Origin: an uncultured Actinomycetes bacterium
Lineage (GTDB): Bacteria; Actinomycetota; Thermoleophilia; UBA2241
Reading direction: 5' to 3'
Assembly: GCA_963755025.1 (NCBI GenBank)
Contig: CAVWIH010000034.1
Coordinates: 128,001 to 192,000, forward strand
Length of the DNA stretch: 64,000 nt
The position numbers were made by a program, and so were the translations under genes. Below, in pieces: positions 2,859-22,823 of the stretch (position 1 is its first letter; every line of letters begins with the position of its first letter). The notes beneath the pieces were generated by a model that worked only from the letters and a program-made list of their open reading frames with translations, was not told the DNA's origin and did no database searches.

Positions 2859-4319
2859 CTATTCGTGACGCGCGCGACGGATGTCGCTGGCGCTCGCCTG
2901 GCAGATGGCGGCCAGGCCGTCGATCTGGTCGTCGCTCAGGCAGGGCTCTTTGGCGGCGTGCGCGGCCAGCAGGCGCTCGACCGTGTCGCAGGCCACGTCG
3001 TTCTCGGTGCGGCCTTCTTCGAGCCACTTGTCGTACGACAGGCGGTTCGACACGCCCGGCTGCAGGTGTTCGCCCGCGCGCACGCGGCGCGCCGTGTCTT
3101 TCTCGCCGAGAAAGCCGCCGCCCGGCCCGACCCGGGCGATCGACTCGGCGGCCAAGGTGGCGTCGGAGACCTCGACGTCGCCGTGAAGGCGGCGCACCAT
3201 GGCGGCGATCTCGTCGTCGACGACCGACTGCGGCAGGTACATGGTGTTGTGCGAATCGATCAGGCCCCAGCCCGTGACGATGTCGGGGTTGGCGCTGCAC
3301 ACGCCGGCCACCTTGAGGGCCTTCTCGTAGCCGGTCTGCAGGCCGGCGTGCTTGCTGTCGGTCGACAGTCCCGGGCTCAGCGTGGGCACGCCCACGTAGT
3401 GGCCGACCTCGGTGGCCATGGCCGCCATGAGGGCGCTCTCGACGCAGCCCAGCGAGAAGGTCGTGCGCAGCATGTCGAGCACGCCGGAGCCGAAGCAGAA
3501 GATGAGCCGCGCCCCGGGCGCGGCGACCTGCAGGGCGGTGGCGACGCCTAGGAACTCGGCGAGCCCCTGCACGACCGAGCCCGCCAGCGTGACCGGCGAG
3601 GTCGCCCCGGCGATCGTCATGGAGTAGACCTCGATCGGTATGCCCAGGGCGGCCAGCGCGACGTGGACGTCGAGCACCGGCCCCTCGACCTGGAGCGGCG
3701 AGGCGGCCGTGCAGACTGTCGAGAAGCGCGGCCGCTCGCGGAACGCCTCGAGGCTGCCCGAGAGCACTTCGCAGATGCGCACGACGGCGTCGACCTCGTT
3801 GGGGCAGTCGACGAAGGTCACGTGCTGCGAGGTCTCGGTGAGCATGGTGAAGTACTCGATGAGCTCGCGCCGGTCGAGCGCGACGTCGGTGGCGCTGACC
3901 TGGGTCCACATGAGGTCGAGCTGCGGCAGTTCGTCCATGAGCGCGGTGCACTCGCGCAGGTCCTGCAGCGTGCTGGGGCGGCGCGCGCCCGTGCGAAAGT
4001 CGAGCGTCTTGGCGACGCAGCCGCTCGGCGCAAAGCGGAACCGCTGGTCGGCGCCGAGCAGGGCGTCGTCGGCCGGCGTGGCGCCGGCCATGGTGAAGGA
4101 GCGCGGGCACTGGGAGATGGCCCACTCGACGAGCTCGCGGGGCAGGCGGACGATGCCGGTAGCCTCGTCGACCTGGGCGCCGCGGGCGGCCAGCAGGGGC
4201 AGCGTGCGCGAGCCGGCCAAGCGTATGCCGACCGTCGCCAGCAGGTCGATGGCCTGGTCTGCGATGCGGCTCTTCTCGTGCTCTGAGAGCCACGCGGTCC
4301 GTGCCTTCACAAGCCTCAC
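2859..4319 (-). CDS. Non-pyrrolysine MttB-superfamily methyltransferase
   Basis: AGATSPVTLAGS and GLSTDSKHAGLQTGYEK motifs, GPGGGFL C-terminal motif; Ser at the Pyl-equivalent position. Confidence 0.85.
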   Translation of the reverse strand: MRLVKARTAWLSEHEKSRIADQAIDLLATVGIRLAGSRTLPLLAARGAQVDEATGIVRLPRELVEWAISQCPRSFTMAGATPADDALLGADQRFRFAPSGCVAKTLDFRTGARRPSTLQDLRECTALMDELPQLDLMWTQVSATDVALDRRELIEYFTMLTETSQHVTFVDCPNEVDAVVRICEVLSGSLEAFRERPRFSTVCTAASPLQVEGPVLDVHVALAALGIPIEVYSMTIAGATSPVTLAGSVVQGLAEFLGVATALQVAAPGARLIFCFGSGVLDMLRTTFSLGCVESALMAAMATEVGHYVGVPTLSPGLSTDSKHAGLQTGYEKALKVAGVCSANPDIVTGWGLIDSHNTMYLPQSVVDDEIAAMVRRLHGDVEVSDATLAAESIARVGPGGGFLGEKDTARRVRAGEHLQPGVSNRLSYDKWLEEGRTENDVACDTVERLLAAHAAKEPCLSDDQIDGLAAICQASASDIRRARHE

Positions 4320-4563: not shown

Positions 4564-5100
4564 ATGATCAGAGCGGGGCAGGCCCCCTTCGGCACGGTCG
4601 CCATGGACGAGCTCGACCGCGGCATCGTGCAGCTGCTGCGCCCTAACGCGCGGCGCTCGTACGCCAGCGTCGCGCGCGCCCTCGGCGTCTCCGAGCCCAC
4701 GGTGCGCAACCGCGTCGACCGCCTCATCGCCAAGGGCGCCGTCTTTCAGCGGGCCAGCGTCAACCCCGCGGCCATCGGTCTACCCGTCGACGCCATGGTC
4801 GGCATCCGCGTGAACCGCGGCTACTCAAAGGGGGTTGGGGCGCGCCTCGCCGCCATGGAGAACGTAGCCTACGTGGGCTACACCACCGGCTCGTTCGACA
4901 TCCTGATCGAGGCGCACCTGCCCGACAACGAGGGCCTCTACAAGTTCTTGAACGAAGACCTCGAAGAGATCGAGGGCGTGGCCTACACCGAGACCTGGCA
5001 CATCCTGCGCACCGACAAGACCAACATCGAGTGGGAGGGCGAGATGGTCGGGCACGCTCCCCTCGAGGTCGTCGACGACCTCGAGGGCGCCGACGCTTGA
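4564..5100 (+). CDS. Lrp/AsnC family transcriptional regulator
   Basis: MDELDRGIVQLL...ARRSYASVARALGVSEPTVRNRV HTH, TTGSFDIL ligand-domain motif; GGAGGAG RBS. Confidence 0.9.
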   Translation: MIRAGQAPFGTVAMDELDRGIVQLLRPNARRSYASVARALGVSEPTVRNRVDRLIAKGAVFQRASVNPAAIGLPVDAMVGIRVNRGYSKGVGARLAAMENVAYVGYTTGSFDILIEAHLPDNEGLYKFLNEDLEEIEGVAYTETWHILRTDKTNIEWEGEMVGHAPLEVVDDLEGADA

Positions 5101-5132: not shown

Positions 5133-5150
5133 TAATTGACCGGTCGATTA
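5133..5150. promoter_or_regulatory. Near-perfect 18-bp palindrome (candidate repressor operator) upstream of mtbB
   Basis: TAATTGACCGGTCGATTA, AT-rich in a GC-rich background; TTGACA at 5097-5102 upstream. Confidence 0.55.
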
Positions 5151-5186
5151 GCACGACCGCCATGGCGTGATCTGGGGAGGGCAAGC

Positions 5187-6596
5187 GTGACGACAGAAGA
5201 CCGGGTGCCGACCCGAATGGCCGACGGCACCTTCGTGCGCCTGACGCGCAGCGAGATCAAGGCCGATCTCGTGGCCGGGTCAGAGGCGGCGGCCAAACGC
5301 GCCAAGGTGGCGCCGCTGACCGACGACGAGATCGACCACCTGCTCGACATCTACGCCTCGCCGGCGCGCTTTACCGGGGTCGACGTGGGCGACGAGATCG
5401 TCCTTTCCTGCGACGGCACCGGCATGAAGACCCACGCCACGCGCATCCAGGACCTGCAGACCTACGAGCAGTGGATGGGCGCCGACCTGCTCGAGCTGTG
5501 CGTGGGCGACTACTCGCTCAAGGTCGTGCGCACCATCCTCGCCTACGAGGCGCAGTACATGCACGACGCCCAGCTCTGCACGGTGGCGCCGCTGCAGTAC
5601 GGCGTCATGCCCAACCTGGGCCTCTATTCCAAGCCCGACGGCCCCTGCGACAACTGGAACGAGCTCCTGCCGCTGGGCCGCATCGACGAAGCGCGGGCGT
5701 CTGAAGAAGAGGCCGTCGAGATGGCCGTGGTCGACATGGTGCGCCTGGCCGACACGCAGTACGAGGCCGGCGCCGACGCCATCGACTGGGACACGACGGG
5801 CGCCTCGGGCGACCCCGAGTTCCTGGCCGCGCTGCGCGCCACCGCCATCATCCGCAAGAAGTACCCCGACTTCGGCGTGCAGCTGGGCATGGCCGGCGAG
5901 TTCGTGCTGGGCATGCACGGCCGGCTCGAGTACGAGGGCGTGCGCCTCGCCGGCCTGTGGCCTAAAGACCAGCTGCTGCTCGCCCAGCAGGCCGGCGCCA
6001 CCATGTTCGGGCCGGTCGTCAACGTGAACACCGGCAAGAGTTGCGCCTGGAACATCGCCCGGGCGATCGCCCTGGTCAAGCCGTGCATGGACGTAGCCAC
6101 CATCCCCGTCCACATGAACGCCGGCATGGGCGTGGGCGCCGTGCCCATGTTCGTGCACCCGCCGGCCGACGCCGTGTGCCGGGCGGCCAAGTCGTGCGTC
6201 GACATCCTGCACCTCGACGGCTTATAGGTTGGTTCCGGCGACCCGCATGGCATGCACAGTGCGCATGCGCAGGCGGCGGGCATGGGCGGAATGCGAGCAG
6301 CCGGAGACCTGGTTGCTCGCCTGCAGATGACCCGCGGTATGCGTCTGGCGCAAGCAAAAGACTATGTGGCCGGCAAGCTCGGCGTGACGCCGTTCGACCT
6401 GTCCGACCCCGTCGTCATGACCGACGTGCGCAACGACTTCGGCTTTGGCCGCATCCACAGCTACGCCATCAGTCAGCCGGCGCAGGCCAACCAGATCGAG
6501 GCCAAGGTGAACATCGCGCGCGTGCTCGACATACCCATCAACTGTGTGGAGCGCTTCAGGGAACGTACGACGCCGGTCGCCGGCGGCGTGCGCTGA
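5187..6596 (+). CDS. mtbB: Dimethylamine:corrinoid methyltransferase, pyrrolysine-containing (in-frame TAG 6225-6227, codon 347 of 469)
   Basis: ORFs 5136-6227 and 6252-6596 share a frame; readthrough gives LDGL-O-VGSGDPHGM...GMGGMRAAGDLVARLQ, matching Methanosarcina MtbB DGI-O-IGVGDPLGM...RAAGDLVARMQ; GTG start with GGGGAGG RBS. Confidence 0.92.
6235..6373 (+). promoter_or_regulatory. Long imperfect stem-loop immediately 3' of the mtbB amber codon (PYLIS-like candidate)
   Basis: Nested helices 6235-39/6369-73, 6244-50/6362-68, 6261-68/6337-44, 6276-83/6327-35, 6293-6302/6311-20; local excess of A/T-ending codons. Confidence 0.6.
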
Positions 6597-6621
6597 CGCG
6601 GCGACCGAGGGAGGGCGACTG

Positions 6622-8097
6622 ATGATCCGCAACCCGCGCGCCGGCGCGCGCAAGAGCGGCGGCTTTCGGCTCGAGGTGTTCACCGACGACGAGCTGCGCG
6701 AGATCCACCTGGCGACGCTCGAGGTGCTGTCGCGCACCGGCGTCTTCGTCGAAGACGACGAGGCGCTCGAGCTGTTCGCCCAGGCGGGCGCCGACATCGA
6801 CCGCGAGCGCCGCGTCGTGCGCCTGCCGGCGCACCTGGTCGAAGACGCCGTCGACGCGGCGCCCTCCACGGTCGTGCTCTGCGGGCGCGACCCGGCGAAC
6901 GACGTGGTCTTAGAAGACGGCCGCGTCGGCTTCACCAACTTCGGCGAGGGCATCCAGGTCGTCGATCCCTACACGGGCGAGCTGCGCGAGTCGCACAAGG
7001 CCGACGTGGCCGACTGCACGCGCCTGATCGACGCCCTGCCCGAGATCGACGTCGTCGAGCGCCCCCTCGGGGCGCACGACGTGCCGCCCGACACGGCGGC
7101 CCTGCACAACGCCGAAGCGATCTTCTCGAACACCACCAAGCACGCCACCATCGGCCCGCTCTCGGGCTTCTGCGCGGTGAAGATGATCGACATGGCGGCC
7201 GCCATCGCCGGCGGCCGAGACCGCTTGCGCAGGCGGCCCATCCTCTCGTTCCTCACCTGCCCGGTGAGCCCCCTCAAGCTCGTCGCCGACGCCTGTCGCA
7301 TCATCATCGAGGGGGCTCGTGCCGGGGTGCCGGTCAACGTGCTCTCCATGGCCATGGCCGGCGGCTCGTCGCCGGTGAACCTGGCCGGCACGCTGGTCAC
7401 CCACAACGCCGAGGTGCTCGCCGGCATCACGCTGGCACAACTCACCGTGCGCGGCGCGCCCGTCATTTACGGCTCGTCGACGACCGCCATGGACCTGCGC
7501 TACGCGAGCGCCTCGGTGGGCAGCCCGGAGTGCGGCATGATCGGCGCCGGGGTGGCCTGCCTGGCGCGCTTCTACTTGCTGCCCAGCTGGGTCGCCGGTG
7601 CGTAGGGCGACTCCAAGGTGGCCGACGCCCAATCCGGTCACGAGAAGACACTCACCAGCCTGCTACCGGCGTTGGCAGGGGCCAACCTGATCTATGGGCT
7701 GGGGATGTTGGAATCGGGCGTCACCATCGACTACGCGCAGCTCGTCATGGACGCCGAGTTCGCGCGCATGGTCAAGTTCTGCGTGCCGGGCATCGCCGTG
7801 AACGACGAGACCCTGTCGGTCGACGTCATCGCCGAGATCGGCCCGTTCAGCGACTTTCTCTCACACGACGACACCTACCGCGGCATGCGCGGCCAGTCGC
7901 GCTCGAAGTTGATCGACCGGCGGGTCCGCGAGGAGTGGGTCGCCGCCGGCTCGACGACGCTCTACGAACGCTCGCGCGCCGAAGCCTGCCGCCTGCTCGA
8001 GAGCCACGTGCCGCAGCCGTTGCCGCCCGAGGTGGCCGCCGAGCTTGCCGCCATCATCGCGGCGGCAGAGCTGGAGCTCGGCGTGGGGCCGGCCTGA
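6622..8097 (+). CDS. mttB: Trimethylamine:corrinoid methyltransferase, pyrrolysine-containing (in-frame TAG 7603-7605, codon 328 of 491)
   Basis: ORFs ending 7605 and 7618-8097 share a frame; [45 protein letters not shown] matches the Pyl site of Methanosarcina MttB; GGAGGG RBS. Confidence 0.93.
7617..7725 (+). promoter_or_regulatory. Long imperfect stem-loop just 3' of the mttB amber codon (PYLIS-like candidate)
   Basis: Nested helices GACGCCC 7624-30/GGGCGTC 7716-22, TCCGG/TTGGA, CCAGCCTG 7655-62/TGGGCTGG 7695-7702, GTTGGC-AGGG-GCCAAC 7671-86. Confidence 0.55.
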
Positions 8098-8993: not shown

Positions 8994-9160
8994 TGGTCCC
9001 TCCGGTCGTGATCTTGCCGTGCCTGGCGCTCACGCGCACCTGGATGTCGCCGAGGCCGCGCGAGATCGACTGGTCGATGCCCAACGCGCTCGTCCCGACG
9101 CCCACGCCGCCGGCACTACCGCCGCGCGCTTCACGGTCGCGGTGAGGTCGCCGTGGTCAT
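8994..9160 (-). pseudogene. Possible remnant of an FMN-binding (flavinylated) domain gene
   Basis: AAGGAGG RBS + ATG 9160 then an early stop; another frame reads GLGDIQVRVSARHGKIT, like the FMN_bind strand motif; lies between the reductase and apbE. Confidence 0.35.
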
Positions 9161-9183
9161 GCGTGACCCTCCTTGCGCGCGCA

Positions 9184-10620
9184 CTAGAACTCGAAGTCTT
9201 CGTGATGGATGCGCTCGCTGCGCACCCCGAGCCGGCGGGCCTGGGCGATGAGCTGCTTCATGAAGCCGCTGGGGCCGCAGACGTACAGGTCGCGGGCGGC
9301 GATGTCGGGCACGAGGCGCTGCAGGCGGCCGGCGTCGAGAGGCTGCTCGGCGCGCGGGCCCACGATCTCGTGCAGGCGCCCGCCGCGCACCCCGACCAGC
9401 TGCGTGATCTCGTCGCGCAGCACGAGGTCGTGGGCCGAAGAGCCGCGCAGCAGCACGACCACGTCGACGTGCCGCGGCAGGTCTTCGAGCATGGCCCGCA
9501 CCGGCGTCGCGCCGACACCGGCGGCCACCAGCAGCACCCGGTCGGTGTCGCGGGCGTAGCGCGTGAAGGCGCCGTAGGGCCCCTCGATCGCCACGGCCGT
9601 GCCCGGCTTGAGCCGGGCCAGCGCCGAGCTGTGCTCGCCGGCCGCTTTGACCGTGATGCGCATCTCGTTGCCGCCGGGCAGCGCCGAGACCGAGTAGGGG
9701 TGCGCCCGCCACCACAGGCCGCGGGTGAGAAAGCGGAAGTTCATGAACTGCCCGCCGACGATCGGCAGCCGGTCGAGATGATGGCCGCGCACCACCAGAC
9801 TGATCACGCCGGGCGACTCCTGCTCGACGCGCGCCACCCTGAGGCGGTGGCTCAGGCTGCGCACGGTCGGCAGGCCGAAGCGGTAGCAGAGCACGACGCC
9901 GGCGGTCAGCAGCCAGAGGCCGATCCAGTAGGCGCGCGCCAGCGGGTGACCGATGAACGGCGTGCCGGTGTCGATCTGGTGGCTGAAGGCGATGGCCGCG
10001 CCGAGGTACATGTACAGGTGGACCGTCCACCAGGTCTCGTAGCGCAGGTGTTTGCGCACGTTGCGGTACGAGGTCACGCCGGCCACGACGATCAGGCCCA
10101 GGCCGACGACCGCGCCGAGCATGCCGGGGAAGTGCGTGATCAGCGTGGCGAGCTCGTGCAGCAGGCCCGTCTTGACGCCTTGCGCGTAGCCCAGGGTGAT
10201 GAACAGGGCGTGGGCGACCAGCAAGATGATGACCCAGGGGCCGAGACGACGGTGCCAGCGCACGAGGGCGTCTTGACCGAGGGCCCGTTCGATCGCCGGT
10301 ATGCGCCCGACGAGCAGCACGGTGACCAGCAACAGGTAGGTGCCCAGCATGCCGGTCAGGCGGCCGATGGCCGTGGCCAGGCCGCCGGGAGCCACCAGGT
10401 CGTGCGGCGAGAGGGTGGGCAGCACGAGCCCCATGGTGACGATCGCACCGAGCAGGGTGAGGGTGCGGAAGATCCGCGTCCACATCATGTGCGGCCTCGG
10501 CAGCGCGCGGGCTCGCGTGCCGCTGCGCTCGCCGACGCGCCGCCTGCCGAGCTCGTCGGCGAGTGCGCCGGTGTCCCACTCATCACTCAAGGTCCTGTCG
10601 ACCTCCTCCGCGCGGGCCAC
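9184..10620 (-). CDS. Ferric reductase-like transmembrane / FAD-NAD(P)H-binding oxidoreductase
   Basis: TM His motifs (RWHRRLG, VAHAL, WWTVHLYMY, FSHQ), HPYSVS, IEGPYG, AAGVGATP, YVCGP, ends HHEDFEF-TAG. Confidence 0.88.
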   Translation of the reverse strand: MARAEEVDRTLSDEWDTGALADELGRRRVGERSGTRARALPRPHMMWTRIFRTLTLLGAIVTMGLVLPTLSPHDLVAPGGLATAIGRLTGMLGTYLLLVTVLLVGRIPAIERALGQDALVRWHRRLGPWVIILLVAHALFITLGYAQGVKTGLLHELATLITHFPGMLGAVVGLGLIVVAGVTSYRNVRKHLRYETWWTVHLYMYLGAAIAFSHQIDTGTPFIGHPLARAYWIGLWLLTAGVVLCYRFGLPTVRSLSHRLRVARVEQESPGVISLVVRGHHLDRLPIVGGQFMNFRFLTRGLWWRAHPYSVSALPGGNEMRITVKAAGEHSSALARLKPGTAVAIEGPYGAFTRYARDTDRVLLVAAGVGATPVRAMLEDLPRHVDVVVLLRGSSAHDLVLRDEITQLVGVRGGRLHEIVGPRAEQPLDAGRLQRLVPDIAARDLYVCGPSGFMKQLIAQARRLGVRSERIHHEDFEF

Positions 10621-17165: not shown

Positions 17166-18600
17166 GTGAGCAGGGGTCCGGGCGACGACACCCCGCCGCC
17201 GGGCGGCGACTCGCCCCCAGGTCAGGGCCCGCCCGCCGACCGCGACGACGACTTCGGCGTCTTCGACGAAGCCGGGCGCCTGGCGCCGGCGCCGCCCATA
17301 GCGCCGCGCGAGCCCGGCCGCTCGGCGCGCCTCCTGCGCCACGTCGTCCTCGACGTCGGCCCGCTGCGCCGCCACCGCGACTTTCGCCTGCTGTGGTTCG
17401 GGCGGGCGGTCTCGCTGCTGGGCTCCATGGTCACCTACGTGGCGATCCCCTATCAGGCCTACCAGATCAGTCACTCCTCGCTGATCGTCGGCCTCGTGAG
17501 CGCCGCCGCCCTGGTGCCGCTGCTGACGATGGCCCTGGTCGGCGGCGCCTTCGCCGACGCCCTCGACCGGCGCCGGCTGGTGCTGATCACCGAGGTCGCC
17601 TTTGCCGGCGCTTCGGCCCTGCTGGTCGCCAACGCGACGCTGTGGCGCCCGCACCTGTGGGTCCTGTTCGTGGTGGCGGCGCTCATGGCGGCGCTCGACG
17701 GCCTGCAGCGGCCGCCGCTCGACGCCCTGCTGCCGCGCCTCGTCGACCGCGACGAGCTCGTCGCCGCCGGCGCGCTGTCGAGTCTGCGCGGTACGGTCGG
17801 CACCATCGCCGGGCCGGCGCTCGGCGGCCTGCTGATCGCCGCCGCCGGCGTGGGGGGCGGCCTACGCCTTCGACGTCGCCACCTTCGTCGTGTCGGTCGT
17901 GGTGCTCACCCTCATGCACGCCGTACCGCCGCCCGCCGACGCCGAGCCGCCCAGCCTGCGGAGCATCCTCGGCGGCCTGCGCTACGCGGCGAGCCGCCAG
18001 GAGCTGATCGGCACCTACAGCGTCGACATCGTCGCCATGTTCTTCGGCATGCCCGAGGCGCTGTTCCCGGCGCTCGCCCAGCACCTCGGCGGCGCCTCCG
18101 CCCTGGGGCTGCTCTTCGCGGCGCCCGAGGTGGGCTCGTTGCTGGCCACCATCACGAGCGGCTGGACGGCGCGCGTGCATCGCCACGGCGTCGCGGTCTG
18201 CCTGGCGGCGGCGGGCTGGGGGGTGGGCATCACCCTGCTGGGCTTCGCGCCCGGCCTGGCGCTGGCCGTGGCCGCGCTCGTGATCGCCGGCTTCTTCGAC
18301 ATGATCAGCGGCATCTTCCGCATGGTCATCTGGAACCAGACGATCCCCGACCGCCTGCGCGGCCGCCTGGCCGGCATCGAGCAGATCTCGTACTCGAGCG
18401 GTCCGCTGCTGGGCGACGTCGAGTCGGGCGTGGTGGCGTCGCTGGCCGGCGTGCGCGCCTCGATCGCCTCGGGCGGCATCCTGTGCGTCGCCGGCGTCGC
18501 CGTGGCGGCGACCCTGCTGCGCGGCTTCTGGCGCTACGACTCGCGGCAAGCGGCGCCCGAAGCGCCGCCGCCCGCTGCGCCGGGCGGCGCCTCGCTGTGA
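17166..18600 (+). CDS. MFS transporter (EntS-like), frameshift in G-run near 17852
   Basis: DFRLLW, GAFADALDRRR, then second frame IPDRLRGRLAG. Confidence 0.8.
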
Positions 18601-18603
18601 TCT

Positions 18604-18693
18604 GGCGCTGCGCCTCGCCGTGACCCGGCGCTGCGCCTCGCCGTGACCGGCGCTGCGCCTCGCCGTGACCCGGCGCTACGCCTCGCCGTGACC
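18604..18693. repeat. Tandem repeat, 4 x 22-23 bp
   Basis: Unit GGCGCTGCGCCTCGCCGTGACC(C), no spacers; a partial copy overlaps the MFS stop codon. Confidence 0.85.
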
Positions 18694-18837
18694 TGAAGCC
18701 TGGCCCCGCTCGGCGCGCCGCGCGTGACCCGCCGCGGCGCATCGTGGACTTGCCGTCTTTCTGAACTTATTGTGTCAGTGGCGTCTGCGTCGTCGAAGCG
18801 CGGAGCCACCCCACGGTAGCGAATCAGGGGAGGACTG

Positions 18838-19470
18838 ATGTCAAAGGAACTCACGGAGGCCGTGATCGAGCTGCGCGAGCAGGACGCGCTGCAGATCACA
18901 GACCGGCTGCTGGCGGGCGGTACCGACCCGCTCACCATCGTCAACTCGTGCAAAGAGGCCATGGAGGTCATCGGGCAGCGCTTCGCCTGTGGCGAGGCCT
19001 TCATTCCCGAGCTCATCATGGCCGGCGAGATCATGAAGGGCATCACCGCTAAGGTGAAGCCCCACCTCGCTGCACAGGCCGCCTCTGAGAAGATCGGCAC
19101 CGTGATCGTGTGCACCGTGCAGGGCGACATCCACGACATCGGCAAAGACATCGTGGCGAGCATGCTCGACATCGCCGGCTTCGACGTCGTCGACCTGGGT
19201 GTCGACGTACCGGTGACCGTCGTGGTCGACAAGGTCTGCGAGGTGCACCCCGCGGTGGTCGGTCTGAGCGGCCTGCTCACCATCGCCTTCGAGACCATGA
19301 AGGCCACGGTGGCGGCCATCGACCAGGCCGGCCTGCACCAGGGCCTCAAGATCATGGTCGGCGGCGCGCCTGTCAACGAAGACGTGTGCGCATTTGCCGG
19401 CGCCGACGGCTGGGCCAAAGACGCCGTGGGCGCCGTCGACCTTGCCAAGACGTGGGTGGGAGGTGCCTGA
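18838..19470 (+). CDS. Corrinoid (B12-binding) methyl-carrier protein 1
   Basis: FIPELIMAG cap domain, GDIHDIGKDIV (DxHxxG), DLGVDVP, GLSGLL, IMVGGAP. Confidence 0.92.
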   Translation: MSKELTEAVIELREQDALQITDRLLAGGTDPLTIVNSCKEAMEVIGQRFACGEAFIPELIMAGEIMKGITAKVKPHLAAQAASEKIGTVIVCTVQGDIHDIGKDIVASMLDIAGFDVVDLGVDVPVTVVVDKVCEVHPAVVGLSGLLTIAFETMKATVAAIDQAGLHQGLKIMVGGAPVNEDVCAFAGADGWAKDAVGAVDLAKTWVGGA

Positions 19471-19472
19471 GA

Positions 19473-20816
19473 ATGTTCACTGACGACTGGAACGAGCTCA
19501 CCGCCGATCAGCGGCTCGAGACGCGCCTCGACGCCTGGCAGAACCTGCCGATCGAGTTCGCCTCGCCCGAGGTGGCCAAGGCCTATCACGACCGCGTGCA
19601 GCTTTGGCGCGATGCCATCGCCCTGAAGAAGCCGGCCCGCGTGCCGATCACGCCGTGGCTCGGTCTCTTTCCCATGCGCTACTCGGGTTTCACCGGCCAC
19701 GACGCCTACTACGACTACGACAAGCTGGGTCAGGCGTGGGACAAGTTCCACGCCGACTTCCTGCCCGACGGTTTGGCCATGACGATCGCCATGGTGCCCG
19801 GCAAGGTCTTCGACATCCTCGACTACAAGCTCTACGACTGGCCCGGTCACGGCGTCGGCAACGACGCCAGCTACCAGTACAACGAGCGCGAGTGGATGAA
19901 GGAAGACGAGTACGACCTGCTCATCAACGACCCCTCCAACTACTGGCAGCGCTTCTACGTGCCGCGCATGTTCGGCGCGCTCGATCCCTGGCAGATGCTG
20001 GCGCCCTTCACCGACCTCTGCGAGGCGCCCTTCACGGCGCCCTTCTTCGTGCCCTTCTCGCTGCCCCCGGTCAAGGCCATGCTGCAGAAGATGATGGACG
20101 CCGGCGACGCCGCCATGGCGTGGCTGCAGGCCTTCATGGCGATCGACGGTAAGCAGATGGCGACGCTCGGCATCCCGCAGATGGCGGGCAGCTCGACCAA
20201 GGCGCCCTACGACATCCTGGGTGACACCATGCGCGGCACGCGCGGTCTCATGCTCGACAAGTTCCGCCGGCCCGACAAGGTCAAGGCCGCCATGGAACGC
20301 CTGGCGCCGCTGGCCATCGACTGGGCGCTGCGCTCGGCCGACGCCACCAGGAACCCGCTGGTCTTCATCCCCATCCACAAGGGCGCCGACGGCTTCATGT
20401 CAGACGCCGACTACCGCGAGCTCTACTGGCCCACCTTCAAGACCGTGCTGCTCGGGCTGATCGAGCAGGGCCTGGTGCCGATGGTCTTCGCCGAGGGCGG
20501 CTACAACGAGCGCCTCGAGGTGATCGCCGACCCCGACATTCCCAAGGGCCGCATGGTCTGGATGTTCGACGACACCGACATGGCGCGCGCCAAGCAGATC
20601 GTCGGGGCGCGCCAGGCGATCGGCGGCAACGTGCCGGGCTCGCTGCTCACCATGGGCACGCCCGAGCGCGTCGACGCCTACGTCAAGGACCTCCTCGGCA
20701 AGACGGCCACCGACGGCGGCTTCTTCCTGGGCACCGGCATCGTGTTAGACGAAGCCGACCCGGCCTGCTTCAAGGCCTTCTGCGACGCCGGCCGCACCTA
20801 CGGCGCGACCATCTGA
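19473..20816 (+). CDS. Uroporphyrinogen decarboxylase-family (MtaA/CmuA-like) methyltransferase 1
   Basis: PARVPI, APYDILGDTMRG, FIPIHKGADGFMS, LYWPT, IGGNVP, GGFFLGTG. Confidence 0.8.
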   Translation: MFTDDWNELTADQRLETRLDAWQNLPIEFASPEVAKAYHDRVQLWRDAIALKKPARVPITPWLGLFPMRYSGFTGHDAYYDYDKLGQAWDKFHADFLPDGLAMTIAMVPGKVFDILDYKLYDWPGHGVGNDASYQYNEREWMKEDEYDLLINDPSNYWQRFYVPRMFGALDPWQMLAPFTDLCEAPFTAPFFVPFSLPPVKAMLQKMMDAGDAAMAWLQAFMAIDGKQMATLGIPQMAGSSTKAPYDILGDTMRGTRGLMLDKFRRPDKVKAAMERLAPLAIDWALRSADATRNPLVFIPIHKGADGFMSDADYRELYWPTFKTVLLGLIEQGLVPMVFAEGGYNERLEVIADPDIPKGRMVWMFDDTDMARAKQIVGARQAIGGNVPGSLLTMGTPERVDAYVKDLLGKTATDGGFFLGTGIVLDEADPACFKAFCDAGRTYGATI

Positions 20817-20832
20817 GTAAACACACGGCATG

Positions 20833-20889
20833 AACGCCGGGCGTCCGGCGGCGCGACTCATCGGTCGCGCCGCCGGCGCCGCCGGCGTT
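20833..20889 (+). terminator. GC-rich hairpin between the two corrinoid/UroD modules
   Basis: CCGGCGGCGCGAC-TCATCG-GTCGCGCCGCCGG with outer AACGCCGG/CCGGCGTT. Confidence 0.55.
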
Positions 20890-20927
20890 GACCAGTTCCA
20901 TCCTTTCATCGCCAGCAGGGAGGACTG

Positions 20928-21566
20928 ATGTCGAACGAACTGACCGACGCCATCGTCGGCATGCGCGAAGACGAGGCTCTGGCCATGGTCGCGCGCGACC
21001 TCGACGCCGGCGTCGCGCTCATTGTGGTGCTCGATCAGGCCAAAGAGGCCATGACCGAGTTGGGCCGGCGCTTCGAGTGCGGCGACGCCTTCATTCCCGA
21101 GCTCATCATGGGCGGTGAGATCATGAAGGGCATCAGCGCGCTCGTGAAGCCGCACTTGAAGAGCGCCGACGGCGAGGGTGCGCGGCGCGGCGTGGTGGTG
21201 ATCGGCACGGTGTCCGGCGACATCCACGACATCGGCAAAGACGTCGTGGTGCTCATGCTCGACGTGAACGGCTACGAGGTCCACGACCTCGGTGTCGACG
21301 TGCCGGCGGCCCGTTTTGTCGAGGCCATCGGCGAGTTCTCCCCGCAGGTGGTCGGCCTGTCGGGCCTGCTCACCCTGGCCTTCGATTCGATGAAGGCCAC
21401 GGTCGACGCCATCGCCGCCGCCGGCCTGCGCGACCGCGTGAAGATCATGGTGGGCGGCGCGCCCGCCGACCAGCAGGTGCAGGACTATACCGGCGCCGAC
21501 GGCTGGGGCAGCGACGTCTCGGCCGCCCTCAACTTGAGCGCGCGGTGGACGGGGGAGCGGTCATGA
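20928..21566 (+). CDS. Corrinoid (B12-binding) methyl-carrier protein 2
   Basis: GDIHDIGKDVV, DLGVDVP, GLSGLL, IMVGGAP; clear paralog of 18838-19470. Confidence 0.92.
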   Translation: MSNELTDAIVGMREDEALAMVARDLDAGVALIVVLDQAKEAMTELGRRFECGDAFIPELIMGGEIMKGISALVKPHLKSADGEGARRGVVVIGTVSGDIHDIGKDVVVLMLDVNGYEVHDLGVDVPAARFVEAIGEFSPQVVGLSGLLTLAFDSMKATVDAIAAAGLRDRVKIMVGGAPADQQVQDYTGADGWGSDVSAALNLSARWTGERS

Positions 21567-22823
21567 CGACTCTCACAGGCGAGGAGCTCTATCAGCAGCG
21601 CGAGCAGCGCTTCAACGACATCGTCGCCCTCAAGAAGCCCGACCACGTGCCGGTGATCGGCCACACCATCCACTACTTCGCCGACCTCTGGAAGGGCTAC
21701 TCGCACAAAGAGGCGGGCTTCAACCACCCGCAGCACTACGCCGCCATCAGAGACGCGACCGTCGAGTTCGGCTGGGAGTTCGTGCCGACCAACGCCCTGT
21801 TCGCCGCCGACGGCTACGAAGCCCTCGGCATCAAGCAGCTGCGCTGGCCGGGCGGCGACCTGCCCGACGACGTCGGCTTTCAGTTCGTCGAGGGCGAGTA
21901 CATGGCCGCCGACGAATACGACGAGTTCCTGGCCGACCCCAACGGCTTCACCCTGCGCAAGATCTTCCCGCGCATCGCGAGCAACCTGGCCGGCTTCGAG
22001 CAGGTGCCCGTGCCGCCGCTCTACTTCATGTCGAACACTTACTACCTGCTGAACGTGGGCGGGCCGCTGCTTGGGGCGCCGCCCCTGCGCAAGGCCCTCG
22101 AGAGCCTGCTCGCCATGTCCGACGCCGTGGGCGGCTACTTCGCGGCCGACGCCGTGAACGCGCAGGAGATGGCCGCCCTGGGCTGCCCGCGCACCTGGGG
22201 GGCGCCCGTCATCCCGGCCTTCGACATGGTCTCCGACATGTTCCGCTCGCTGCGCGGCAGCACGCTCGACATGTACCGCCACCCGGAGCAACTGCTGGCC
22301 ACGATCGACCTCATGCAGCAGGCGCAGGTCGCCCTGGCCCTCGATGATCATCCAGGTCACCGGCAATCCCCGGGTGTTCATTCCCATGCACCGCGGCGCC
22401 GGTGGCTTCATGAGCGAGGAGCAGTTCGAGAAGTTCTACTGGCCGTCGTTCAAGGCCCTCGTGCTGGCCATCATCGAGGCCGGCGGCGTGCCGCTGCCGC
22501 TCTTCGAGGGCGACTACACGCCGCGCCTCAAGTACCTGGCCGAGCTACCGGCCGGCAAGGTGGCCGGCCACTTCGACAAGGTCGACCGCGTCAAGTTCAA
22601 GGAGATCCTGGGCGACAAGATGTGCTTCTGGGGCAACGTGCCCGTCTCGCTGCTGTGCACCGGCACGCCGCGGCAGGTCAAAGACGACGTCAGGGAGCTC
22701 GTCGAGCTGTTCGGCGACACCGGCACGCTCATTCTCGACTCGGGGCTCGGCATTCCCGACGAGGCCCGCCCCGAGAACCTCTACGCGCTGCGCGAAGCGG
22801 CCGAGGAGTACGGCGTGTTCTAA
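21563..22823 (+). CDS. UroD-family methyltransferase 2, frameshift near 22344
   Basis: KPDHVPV, EYMAADEYD, PAFDMVSDMFRSLRG; second frame FIPMHRGAGGFMS...FYWPS...FWGNVP. Confidence 0.8.

Follow-up and report, generated by a model that had tools for sequence, protein, structure and literature searches.

Two methyltransferase genes with in-frame TAG codons

We analyzed a 64,000-nt stretch of a contig (the window, to which coordinates refer unless another contig is named) from a metagenome-assembled genome (MAG; 84% complete, 5% contaminated). It contains two adjacent genes on the forward strand, mtbB (dimethylamine:corrinoid methyltransferase; 5187..6596, 469 codons, TGA stop) and mttB (trimethylamine:corrinoid methyltransferase; 6622..8097, 491 codons, TGA stop). 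The mtbB gene starts at a GTG, with GGGGAGGG ahead of the start codon, and carries its pyrrolysine (Pyl) codon, an in-frame TAG, at 6225-6227 (residue 347). The mttB gene starts at an ATG 25 nt past the mtbB stop, with GAGGGAGGG ahead of it, and its pyrrolysine codon is the in-frame TAG at 7603-7605 (residue 328). Translation under table 11 splits both genes into two pieces (5136..6227 and 6252..6596 for mtbB; 6544..7605 and 7618..8097 for mttB), as the first-pass annotation of this DNA had expected of standard gene callers. The frame indicated by third-position GC is unchanged across both TAGs.

When read through the TAG, MtbB (469 aa) matches PF09505 with 547.6 bits (model positions 4-462 of 463) and TIGR02368 with 414.7 bits, above the curated equivalog cut-off of 369.1; none of the solved structures compared with it by sequence matched. 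MttB (491 aa) matches the whole of TIGR02369 (model 1-469 of 469; 730.9 bits, equivalog cut-off 525) and aligns over residues 4-483 with PDB chains 7xcm_A and 7xcl_A (411 bits). The mttB TAG falls opposite the X (pyrrolysine) of 7xcl_A and opposite a K in the variant 7xcm_A. We take the chains of 7XCL, 7XCM, and 7XCN to be MttB of Methanosarcina; the structures are described in PMC9842639. MtbB and MttB belong to different Pfam families and hence are not homologous, in agreement with the original description of two unrelated methyltransferases with one in-frame TAG each.

Both TAGs also mark the beginning of an Rfam match on the forward strand. PYLIS_2 (RF02509) matches 6225..6324 in mtbB with 63.7 bits (gathering threshold 36), and PYLIS_3 (RF02510) matches 7603..7702 in mttB with 72.6 bits (gathering threshold 38), each spanning 100 nt from the TAG and the full model (1-100 of 100), in which position 1 is the UAG. 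Together with the 7xcl_A alignment, this bears out the proposal that the TAGs occupy catalytic pyrrolysine sites. We do not read the matches as evidence of an RNA recoding signal: many of the model pairs are non-standard here, and the similarity is taken to be that of conserved coding sequence. In the first PYLIS_2 helix at mtbB, seven pairs are non-standard, so the score derives mainly from conserved coding sequence; the match sets the TAG register of mtbB but does not demonstrate an RNA signal.

Directly upstream of mtbB, on the same strand, lies a gene for an Lrp/AsnC-family transcription regulator (4564..5100; HTH_AsnC-type domain 54.5 bits, AsnC_trans_reg 48.6 bits). Its coding signal begins at approximately 4560, and the start codon at 4564 was chosen by us. 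From its position, this protein is a candidate regulator of the mtbB-mttB operon. Divergent from the operon is an MttB-superfamily paralog without pyrrolysine (2859..4319, reverse strand; PF06253 234.2 bits, together with the frame signal), which has ...GLSTDSK... at the Pyl column and whose terminal TAG is a true stop. A search for a cognate corrinoid gene beside the operon found none adjacent to it.

Conservation of the TAG codons and selection beyond them

The genome encodes six further mtbB and four further Pyl-type mttB copies with the TAG in the same alignment column, such that this column holds a TAG in 7/7 mtbB and 5/5 Pyl-type mttB genes across the whole genome, far more than chance would give. 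A non-Pyl paralog has V at this column. In related loci examined from other genomes, the mtbB TAG was invariant (80/80) while third codon positions nearby varied. An mttB-type TAG motif was found within the 3-kb flanks of 28 of these 80 loci, mostly ~1 kb downstream, as in the window. Eight of the 80 came from MAGs labelled Actinomycetota.

Sequence beyond the TAG evolves as coding sequence in both genes. Over 112 codons past the mtbB TAG, comparison with 12 orthologs gave 30-42 synonymous and 7-21 non-synonymous codon changes; over 150 codons past the mttB TAG, comparison with nine orthologs gave 27-33 synonymous and 17-28 non-synonymous changes.

When the genome was scanned for TAGs flanked on either side by coding signal, 22 candidates emerged, one of which was an mtbB. 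The other 21 were rejected as pyrrolysine sites, as they look like adjacent genes in the same frame with a start codon just past the TAG. The scan missed most of the known mtbB and mttB copies and was therefore insensitive, and it says nothing on the absence of further Pyl proteins. Selenocysteine was likewise considered and rejected for an MttB paralog (C24:57108-58541), whose single TGA lies upstream of the real start.

Pyrrolysine machinery in the genome

The first-pass annotation had proposed looking elsewhere in the genome for the pyl genes, a ramA-like activase, and Wood-Ljungdahl genes. Two RACo/RamA-type activases are encoded, and pylB, pylC, pylD, tRNA-Pyl(CUA) (pylT), pylSn, and pylSc were all located on a contig other than that of the window (C10). 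Scores exceeded the cut-offs for pylB (423.3 bits vs 348.2), pylD (173 bits summed vs 150), pylSn (125.7 bits vs 51.15), and pylSc (277.8 bits vs 178.15). The pylC match is divided over two frames (C10 68840-69088 and 69087-69968) with 246.2 and 64.3 bits against a cut-off of 248.3. The tRNA-Pyl predicted by ARAGORN (C10:71096-71168; 73 nt, CUA anticodon) has a 6-bp anticodon stem, a 3-bp D stem, and a short variable loop.

Among the PDB matches listed, PylSc was closest to 3dsq/2zni (266 bits), with the other 24 PylRS chains at 157-192 bits. The organism of 3dsq/2zni is presumably Desulfitobacterium hafniense. Like such split bacterial systems, the Pyl system found here has PylSc and PylSn encoded by two genes, and its tRNA-Pyl combines a short variable loop with an anticodon stem of 6 bp; it differs in gene order. 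The genes run pylB-pylC-pylD-pylT-pylSn, followed, after ~4 kb containing four genes (among them one radical-SAM and one corrinoid-protein gene), by pylSc on the opposite strand, an order shared by two relatives of the same genus. The usual bacterial orders are pylTScBCDSn or pylSnScBCD (PMC3941956).

Ten genes for corrinoid proteins of the TIGR02370 type were found in the genome, of which three score above the cut-off. Candidate partners of MttB and MtbB are the corrinoid proteins at C16:25474-26617 and C10:73371-73943. A search for a methylcorrinoid:tetrahydrofolate methyltransferase returned only a weak Pterin_bind candidate (C19:109746-110405, 71 bits).

Decoding of UAG and alternative explanations

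TAG is a common stop in this genome, ending 578 of 1,604 crudely called genes (~36%, close to the 41% that base composition predicts), and release factor RF1 (prfA) is present (446.9 bits vs a cut-off of 423.25). Decoding is therefore ambiguous: UAG is contested between tRNA-Pyl and RF1, with no genome-wide reassignment. A UAG-to-Pyl reassignment system from 2025, as cited in PMC13695967, likewise reads UAG as Pyl; in the present genome, by contrast, TAG is still a frequent stop and RF1 is kept.

We consider it very probable that mtbB and mttB form an operon in which the one UAG of each gene is read as pyrrolysine by the genome's own split Pyl system, UAG acting otherwise as a stop. PylB, PylC, and PylD would make pyrrolysine, which PylSc and PylSn would load onto tRNA-Pyl(CUA), and competition of this tRNA with RF1 at UAG would yield full-length MtbB and MttB. 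MttB is predicted to take a methyl group from trimethylamine (TMA), and MtbB one from dimethylamine (DMA), and to pass it to corrinoid proteins whose genes lie elsewhere in the genome, with RamA-like activases holding the corrinoids reduced. From there, the methyl group would presumably move to tetrahydrofolate.

The divided pylC gives reason to consider a defect of the Pyl system in this strain, in which case the TAGs would terminate translation or be passed by low-level canonical read-through, and the operon would be decaying. A real frameshift in pylC would leave the strain unable to make pyrrolysine, and the break, which lies in a CCC/GGG-rich stretch, is what this explanation has in its favor. 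An assembly error is likelier, given that pylC occupies a single frame in two congeneric genomes whose pyl clusters are arranged identically, and that other genes of the assembly are frameshifted as well. Split matches affect MttB-family genes on C28, C22, C10, and C21, an mtbB match at C11:17976-19225, and, in the window itself, MFS ORFs (17166-18620 and 17890-18597), which points to indel errors. Moreover, mtbB and mttB of the window are full-length and free of frameshifts. We thus regard loss of the Pyl system as improbable.

It is still less probable that the TAGs are ordinary stops, with split or truncated genes whose downstream parts would be separate ORFs or untranslated. RF1 is encoded, and TAG does serve as a genuine stop here, including in neighboring genes (811-813 and 2859-2861). 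Against this, a single HMM match crosses each TAG, as does the structural alignment; the reading frame stays under purifying selection past the TAG; the codon is invariant at all 80 related loci amid variable third positions; and the genome holds decoding machinery.

Least credible of all is an origin of the TAGs in faulty sequencing or assembly. Indel-type frameshifts do occur in the assembly, but 12 paralogs within this genome and 80 loci from other assemblies share the TAG at this column, a pattern that error cannot produce and that upholds the earlier judgment that errors at exactly these two codons are implausible. Contigs of independent runs (X1, X2, and X16) span 7603-7605, with no differing letter there among 40 of the 213 difference rows. 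At 6225-6227, none of the contigs listed from four runs spans the TAG with 31 letters on either side; all four runs used for coverage consist of contigs. Contigs from RNA libraries (X15 and X16) overlap parts of mtbB and mttB, although DNA carry-over may account for them.

Comparison with known systems and previous reports

The MtbB described here resembles that of methylotrophic methanogens (PF09505, TIGR02368, RF02509) in its full-length match above the equivalog cut-off and in the UAG at PYLIS_2 position 1, but it is found in a bacterial host with seven mtbB copies. According to Borrel et al. 2014 (PMC3941956), mtbB occurs almost exclusively in Methanosarcinales. Similarly, MttB shares with its Methanosarcina counterpart the motif around the pyrrolysine site, in addition to the TAG opposite the X of 7xcl and the TIGR02369 equivalog match. 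It differs in its bacterial host, which is without methanogenesis, and in having no mttC or permease gene adjoining it. Past the corrinoid, the methyl acceptor in Methanosarcina is coenzyme M, for which tetrahydrofolate would presumably substitute here.

Expression of Pyl-encoding mttB and mtbB by Actinobacteriota MAGs was reported from a thawing permafrost mire (Ellenbogen et al. 2023, PMC10805028). These MAGs resemble the present one in phylum, in the presence of both genes, and in the truncation signature at the amber codon. Hence, Pyl-dependent mtbB and mttB have already been reported from this bacterial group, and our observation, while real, is in no part new in kind. The words pylS and pylT do not appear in the main text of that paper, beyond which the present analysis adds the whole complement of pyl genes, their arrangement and distribution across the family, and stop-codon usage. 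Among openly searchable main texts, we found no paper that describes a pyl cluster in Thermoleophilia or how such clusters are distributed across the family. Of 81 bacterial PylRS genes counted in a review, two came from Actinobacteria (PMC11764691).

Standard gene callers split these genes (12 in this genome), which leads to an undercount of methylamine use among Actinomycetota of soil and peat. In wetlands and permafrost, bacteria that demethylate TMA and DMA draw on the same substrates as methylotrophic methanogens, a competition already raised in the 2023 paper (PMC10805028). In this lineage of 70% GC, UAG commonly ends genes and also serves as a sense codon, which makes the group a natural example of ambiguous bacterial decoding. 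It could also supply PylRS/tRNA pairs from a phylum that has seldom been explored for them.

Host, distribution, and energy metabolism

The host belongs to the class Thermoleophilia of the Actinomycetota, consistent with the Actinomycetota-like origin suggested from the window. It is an uncultured soil or peat actinobacterium. WhiB, whose absence from an actinobacterium would be odd, was not found in the genome, and a search for Spo0A returned only receiver-domain matches below the cut-off. A high-GC Bacillota host (Limnochordia or Symbiobacteriia) was rejected, as the genomes carrying related loci are Actinomycetota relatives from the same genus and family.

PylSc was detected in all 12 genomes of the genus, including the present one, and PylS in 72 of the 79 genomes sampled from the host family, frequencies that argue against a binning artefact. 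Outside the class Thermoleophilia, PylS was detected in 0 of 369 sampled genomes. The host is therefore unusual, as first proposed, at the level of phylum, but not within its own family, where PylS is nearly universal, and Actinobacteriota cases had already been published.

The first-pass annotation had further proposed that the organism demethylates TMA anaerobically via DMA to monomethylamine (MMA). The core of this reading, pyrrolysine codons at both TAGs, is borne out. MMA is a possible end product: the search for mtmB found no copy in the 84%-complete genome, yet a TAG-containing mtmB is present in relatives, one of them of the same genus. The anaerobic part lacks support. The genome encodes a heme-copper oxidase subunit I (525 bits), on the same contig as other mtbB and mttB copies, while the search for Wood-Ljungdahl genes gave no match to acetyl-CoA synthase (CdhC/AcsB, PF03598) at 84% completeness. 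A methylotrophic acetogen would have this enzyme feeding the Wood-Ljungdahl pathway, and we accordingly do not classify the organism as one. Given the oxidase and the lack of a synthase match, respiration is possible, and electrons from the methyl groups may be disposed of in this way.

More tentatively, the Thermoleophilia family might represent a large, possibly the largest, vertically inherited bacterial Pyl clade, one that couples Pyl-dependent demethylation of TMA and DMA to aerobic or microaerobic respiration rather than to methanogenesis or acetogenesis, with RF1 retained and UAG still in frequent use as a stop. We consider this possible but doubtful. If it were true, either pyl expression would be tightly regulated or Pyl-extended proteins would be tolerated at hundreds of genes.

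Two methyltransferase genes with in-frame TAG codons

Two adjacent genes on the forward strand, mtbB (5187-6596; GTG start behind GGGGAGGG, TGA stop) and mttB (6622-8097; ATG start behind GAGGGAGGG, TGA stop), are each broken into two by table 11 translation, with in-frame TAG codons at 6225-6227 and 7603-7605, respectively. The third-position GC signal, very strong in this 70% GC DNA, follows a single frame over 5161-6600 and another over 6601-8040, unbroken at both TAGs. When read through, MtbB (469 aa) matched PF09505 with 547.6 bits (model positions 4-462 of 463) and the NCBIfam equivalog TIGR02368 (dimethylamine:corrinoid methyltransferase) with 414.7 bits (cut-off 369.1), and MttB (491 aa) matched all 469 positions of TIGR02369 (trimethylamine:corrinoid methyltransferase; 730.9 bits, cut-off 525). 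A sequence search of the PDB returned no relative of MtbB. MttB matched 7xcm_A/7xcl_A (411 bits), and in the alignment its TAG falls at the residue given as X in 7xcl and as K in the 7xcm variant. The Rfam models PYLIS_2 (mtbB) and PYLIS_3 (mttB), in which UAG occupies model positions 1-3, matched at 6225-6324 (63.7 bits, gathering threshold 36) and 7603-7702 (72.6 bits, threshold 38), independently confirming the registers of both TAGs. As many of the modelled base pairs are non-standard in the window, we take the two matches to reflect conservation of the coding sequence; they do not prove an RNA signal. The operon is preceded by an Lrp/AsnC regulator and followed by an ApbE-family gene; a divergently oriented MttB paralog without pyrrolysine also neighbors it.

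TAG at the pyrrolysine column recurs within the genome (G000; 3.37 Mb, 39 contigs, 84% complete, 5% contaminated), in which the window occupies C34:128001-192000. Its seven mtbB genes (six intact, one in three frames) all carry TAG at an identical alignment column (DG[LY]-O-VG.GD), and five mttB genes carry it at VAG[AL]-O-.D.K; in a sixth MttB paralog, added as a comparison, the pyrrolysine column is occupied by V. MttB-family matches without an in-frame stop numbered 27 out of 34, several of the 27 being pieces of single genes. A fuller operon version on contig C16 (19982-26653; L021:1983-8654) comprises a non-pyrrolysine MttB gene, a TetR regulator, mtbB (TAG), mttB (TAG), and two corrinoid-protein genes. 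An alignment of six MtbB proteins from this genome, searched against prokaryote genomes with each species represented once, yielded 444 relatives. Among the best 80 of these 444 loci, TAG occupied the pyrrolysine column in all 80 (74 with the strict motif, 6 with A or M after the TAG), and the mttB-type TAG motif lay inside the 3-kb flanks of 28, usually about 1 kb past the end of mtbB, which is the tandem mtbB-mttB order of the window.

Codon changes downstream of the TAGs bear on whether these parts are translated. Over 112 codons 3' of the mtbB TAG, comparisons with 12 orthologs (86-92% identical) gave 30-42 synonymous and 7-21 non-synonymous changes, mainly at third positions; over 150 codons 3' of the mttB TAG, comparisons with nine orthologs gave 27-33 and 17-28, respectively. 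Hence, both downstream parts appear to be translated in the same frame as the upstream parts, and the TAGs are, on this sequence evidence, neither chance nor error. Frame, family matches, and codon register thus agree on the in-frame TAGs reported by the first-pass annotation, and its core reading, that they are pyrrolysine codons, is correct with high confidence.

Parts of the window were also present in soil, peat, and wetland sequencing runs, four of which were compared as contigs. Contigs of X1, X2, and X16 (RNA library) span 7603-7605, and the 40 of 213 differences listed include no differing letter at these positions; none of the contigs listed spans 6225-6227. These contigs add little, and transcription is not to be read from them.

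Pyrrolysine machinery

The pyl genes that the first-pass annotation proposed to seek elsewhere in the genome are present on contig C10: pylB (67664-68680), pylC (68840-69968; L004:6841-7969), pylD (70114-70989), a tRNA-Pyl with anticodon CUA (71096-71168), pylSn (71354-71617), and, on the strand opposite to the rest of the cluster, pylSc (75537-76259). Radical-SAM, MtbC-like corrinoid-protein, MarR, and YceI genes lie between pylSn and pylSc. The tRNA has the expected 6-bp anticodon stem, 3-bp D stem, and short variable loop, and PylSc scored best against PDB 3dsq/2zni (266 bits; the 24 remaining PylRS chains listed gave 157-192 bits). pylC lies in two frames, broken near a CCC/GGG-rich stretch, as would be seen in a dead gene or through an indel error in the assembly. 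In two relatives of the same genus (L103 and L104), the cluster is ordered identically and pylC occupies a single frame, and further genes are split in this assembly; an indel error is therefore likelier. The genome also encodes ten TIGR02370-type corrinoid proteins and two RamA-like activases, the latter likewise anticipated, none of them beside the window's operon.

UAG as stop and probable sense codon

Among 1604 crudely called genes, stops were TAG in 578, TGA in 880, and TAA in 146, a TAG share of 36% against 41% expected from base composition. Two genes adjoining the window's operon end in TAG, and RF1 was found above cut-off. Thus, UAG is ambiguous in this genome (stop or pyrrolysine) and not reassigned, as in other pyrrolysine-using bacteria and unlike the archaeal all-TAG code (cited in PMC13695967). 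In an insensitive scan, 21 TAGs outside mtbB were flanked on either side by coding signal; they have the appearance of adjacent-gene junctions. A tRNA-Sec (anticodon TCA, ARAGORN) at C24:14507-14604 suggests that selenocysteine may be used alongside pyrrolysine. A TGA inside an MttB-family match on C24 was rejected as a selenocysteine codon, as it lies upstream of the true start.

Host and distribution

Taxon labels of the best 80 of 444 mtbB loci were Thermoleophilia (58), Actinomycetes (12), Actinomycetota (8), Dehalococcoidales (1), and Proteobacteria (1). Identical hit coordinates place the L023 genome in the window genome's genus and the L100 genome (Thermoleophilia) in its family. WhiB (PF02467) had no match in the 84% complete genome, which is unexpected for Actinomycetota (the control matched in Corynebacterium only), and Spo0A was sought there and not found.

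PylSc is the rule in the window's family and rare across the phylum. It was above cut-off in 12/12 genomes of the genus (this one counted) and 12/13 other genomes of the family. In a class sample (n = 400), it occurred in 72/79 genomes of the window's family, 9/61 of one other family, and 0/260 of ten further families; in a phylum sample (n = 400), the sole additional holder came from the second family, with 0/369 outside the class. These counts are samples of relatives that are not independent.

Pyrrolysine-encoding mtbB and mttB are of a kind already reported for Actinomycetota, as expressed by MAGs from a thawing permafrost mire (Ellenbogen et al. 2023, PMC10805028, whose main text lacks the words pylS and pylT; its supplements may hold more). 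In a 2025 review, two of the 81 bacterial PylRS genes counted are from Actinobacteria (PMC11764691), and Borrel et al. 2014 (PMC3941956) give the usual bacterial pyl gene orders and describe mtbB as then nearly confined to Methanosarcinales. We found no paper describing the pyl cluster of Thermoleophilia or how widely the family carries it. Less described are the near-universal occurrence of PylSc in a single Thermoleophilia family, the presence of seven mtbB genes in one bacterial genome, a split cluster in which pylSc stands apart in inverted orientation, and pyrrolysine decoding alongside an oxidase, RF1, and frequent use of TAG as a stop.

Predicted methylamine metabolism

The first-pass annotation further proposed anaerobic demethylation down to monomethylamine (MMA). 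CdhC/acetyl-CoA synthase had no match in the 84% complete genome, and C14, a contig with mtbB and mttB copies, encodes subunit I of a heme-copper oxidase (525 bits). mtmB was likewise not found in this genome, yet six of the 60 family genomes sampled, one from the same genus, hold a full-length, high-scoring copy that contains one TAG. Therefore, neither "anaerobic" nor "to MMA" is established. MtmB-family matches occurred in 46/60 sampled genomes of the family; most of the remaining ones (PF05369, 215-365 bits; e.g., G201:C13:3226-4575 and G046:C1:1313222-1314571 in relatives) have no in-frame TAG and are non-pyrrolysine homologs beside a few TAG-containing mtmB genes. Methyl groups would pass from methyl-corrinoid to tetrahydrofolate, for which the only candidate seen was a weak Pterin_bind match (C19:109746-110405).

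Other features of the window

A 482-codon ORF at 9134-10579 (-) has strong coding signal and no Pfam match. Also on the reverse strand, a short-chain dehydrogenase (811-1587), a 3-hydroxyisobutyrate-dehydrogenase-like gene (1878-2792), and, next to the latter, the non-pyrrolysine MttB-superfamily gene (2859-4319) may form a module acting on a quaternary amine or some other methylated compound; the first and last end in TAG as a true stop. On the forward strand (region 17166-22820), an MFS transporter is followed by two corrinoid proteins (18838-19467 and 20928-21563), each paired with a methyltransferase of the URO-D family. Pfam matches of the transporter are spread over two overlapping ORFs (17166-18620 and 17890-18597, +), and the second URO-D match covers the C-terminal part only, both of which look like indel errors or decay.
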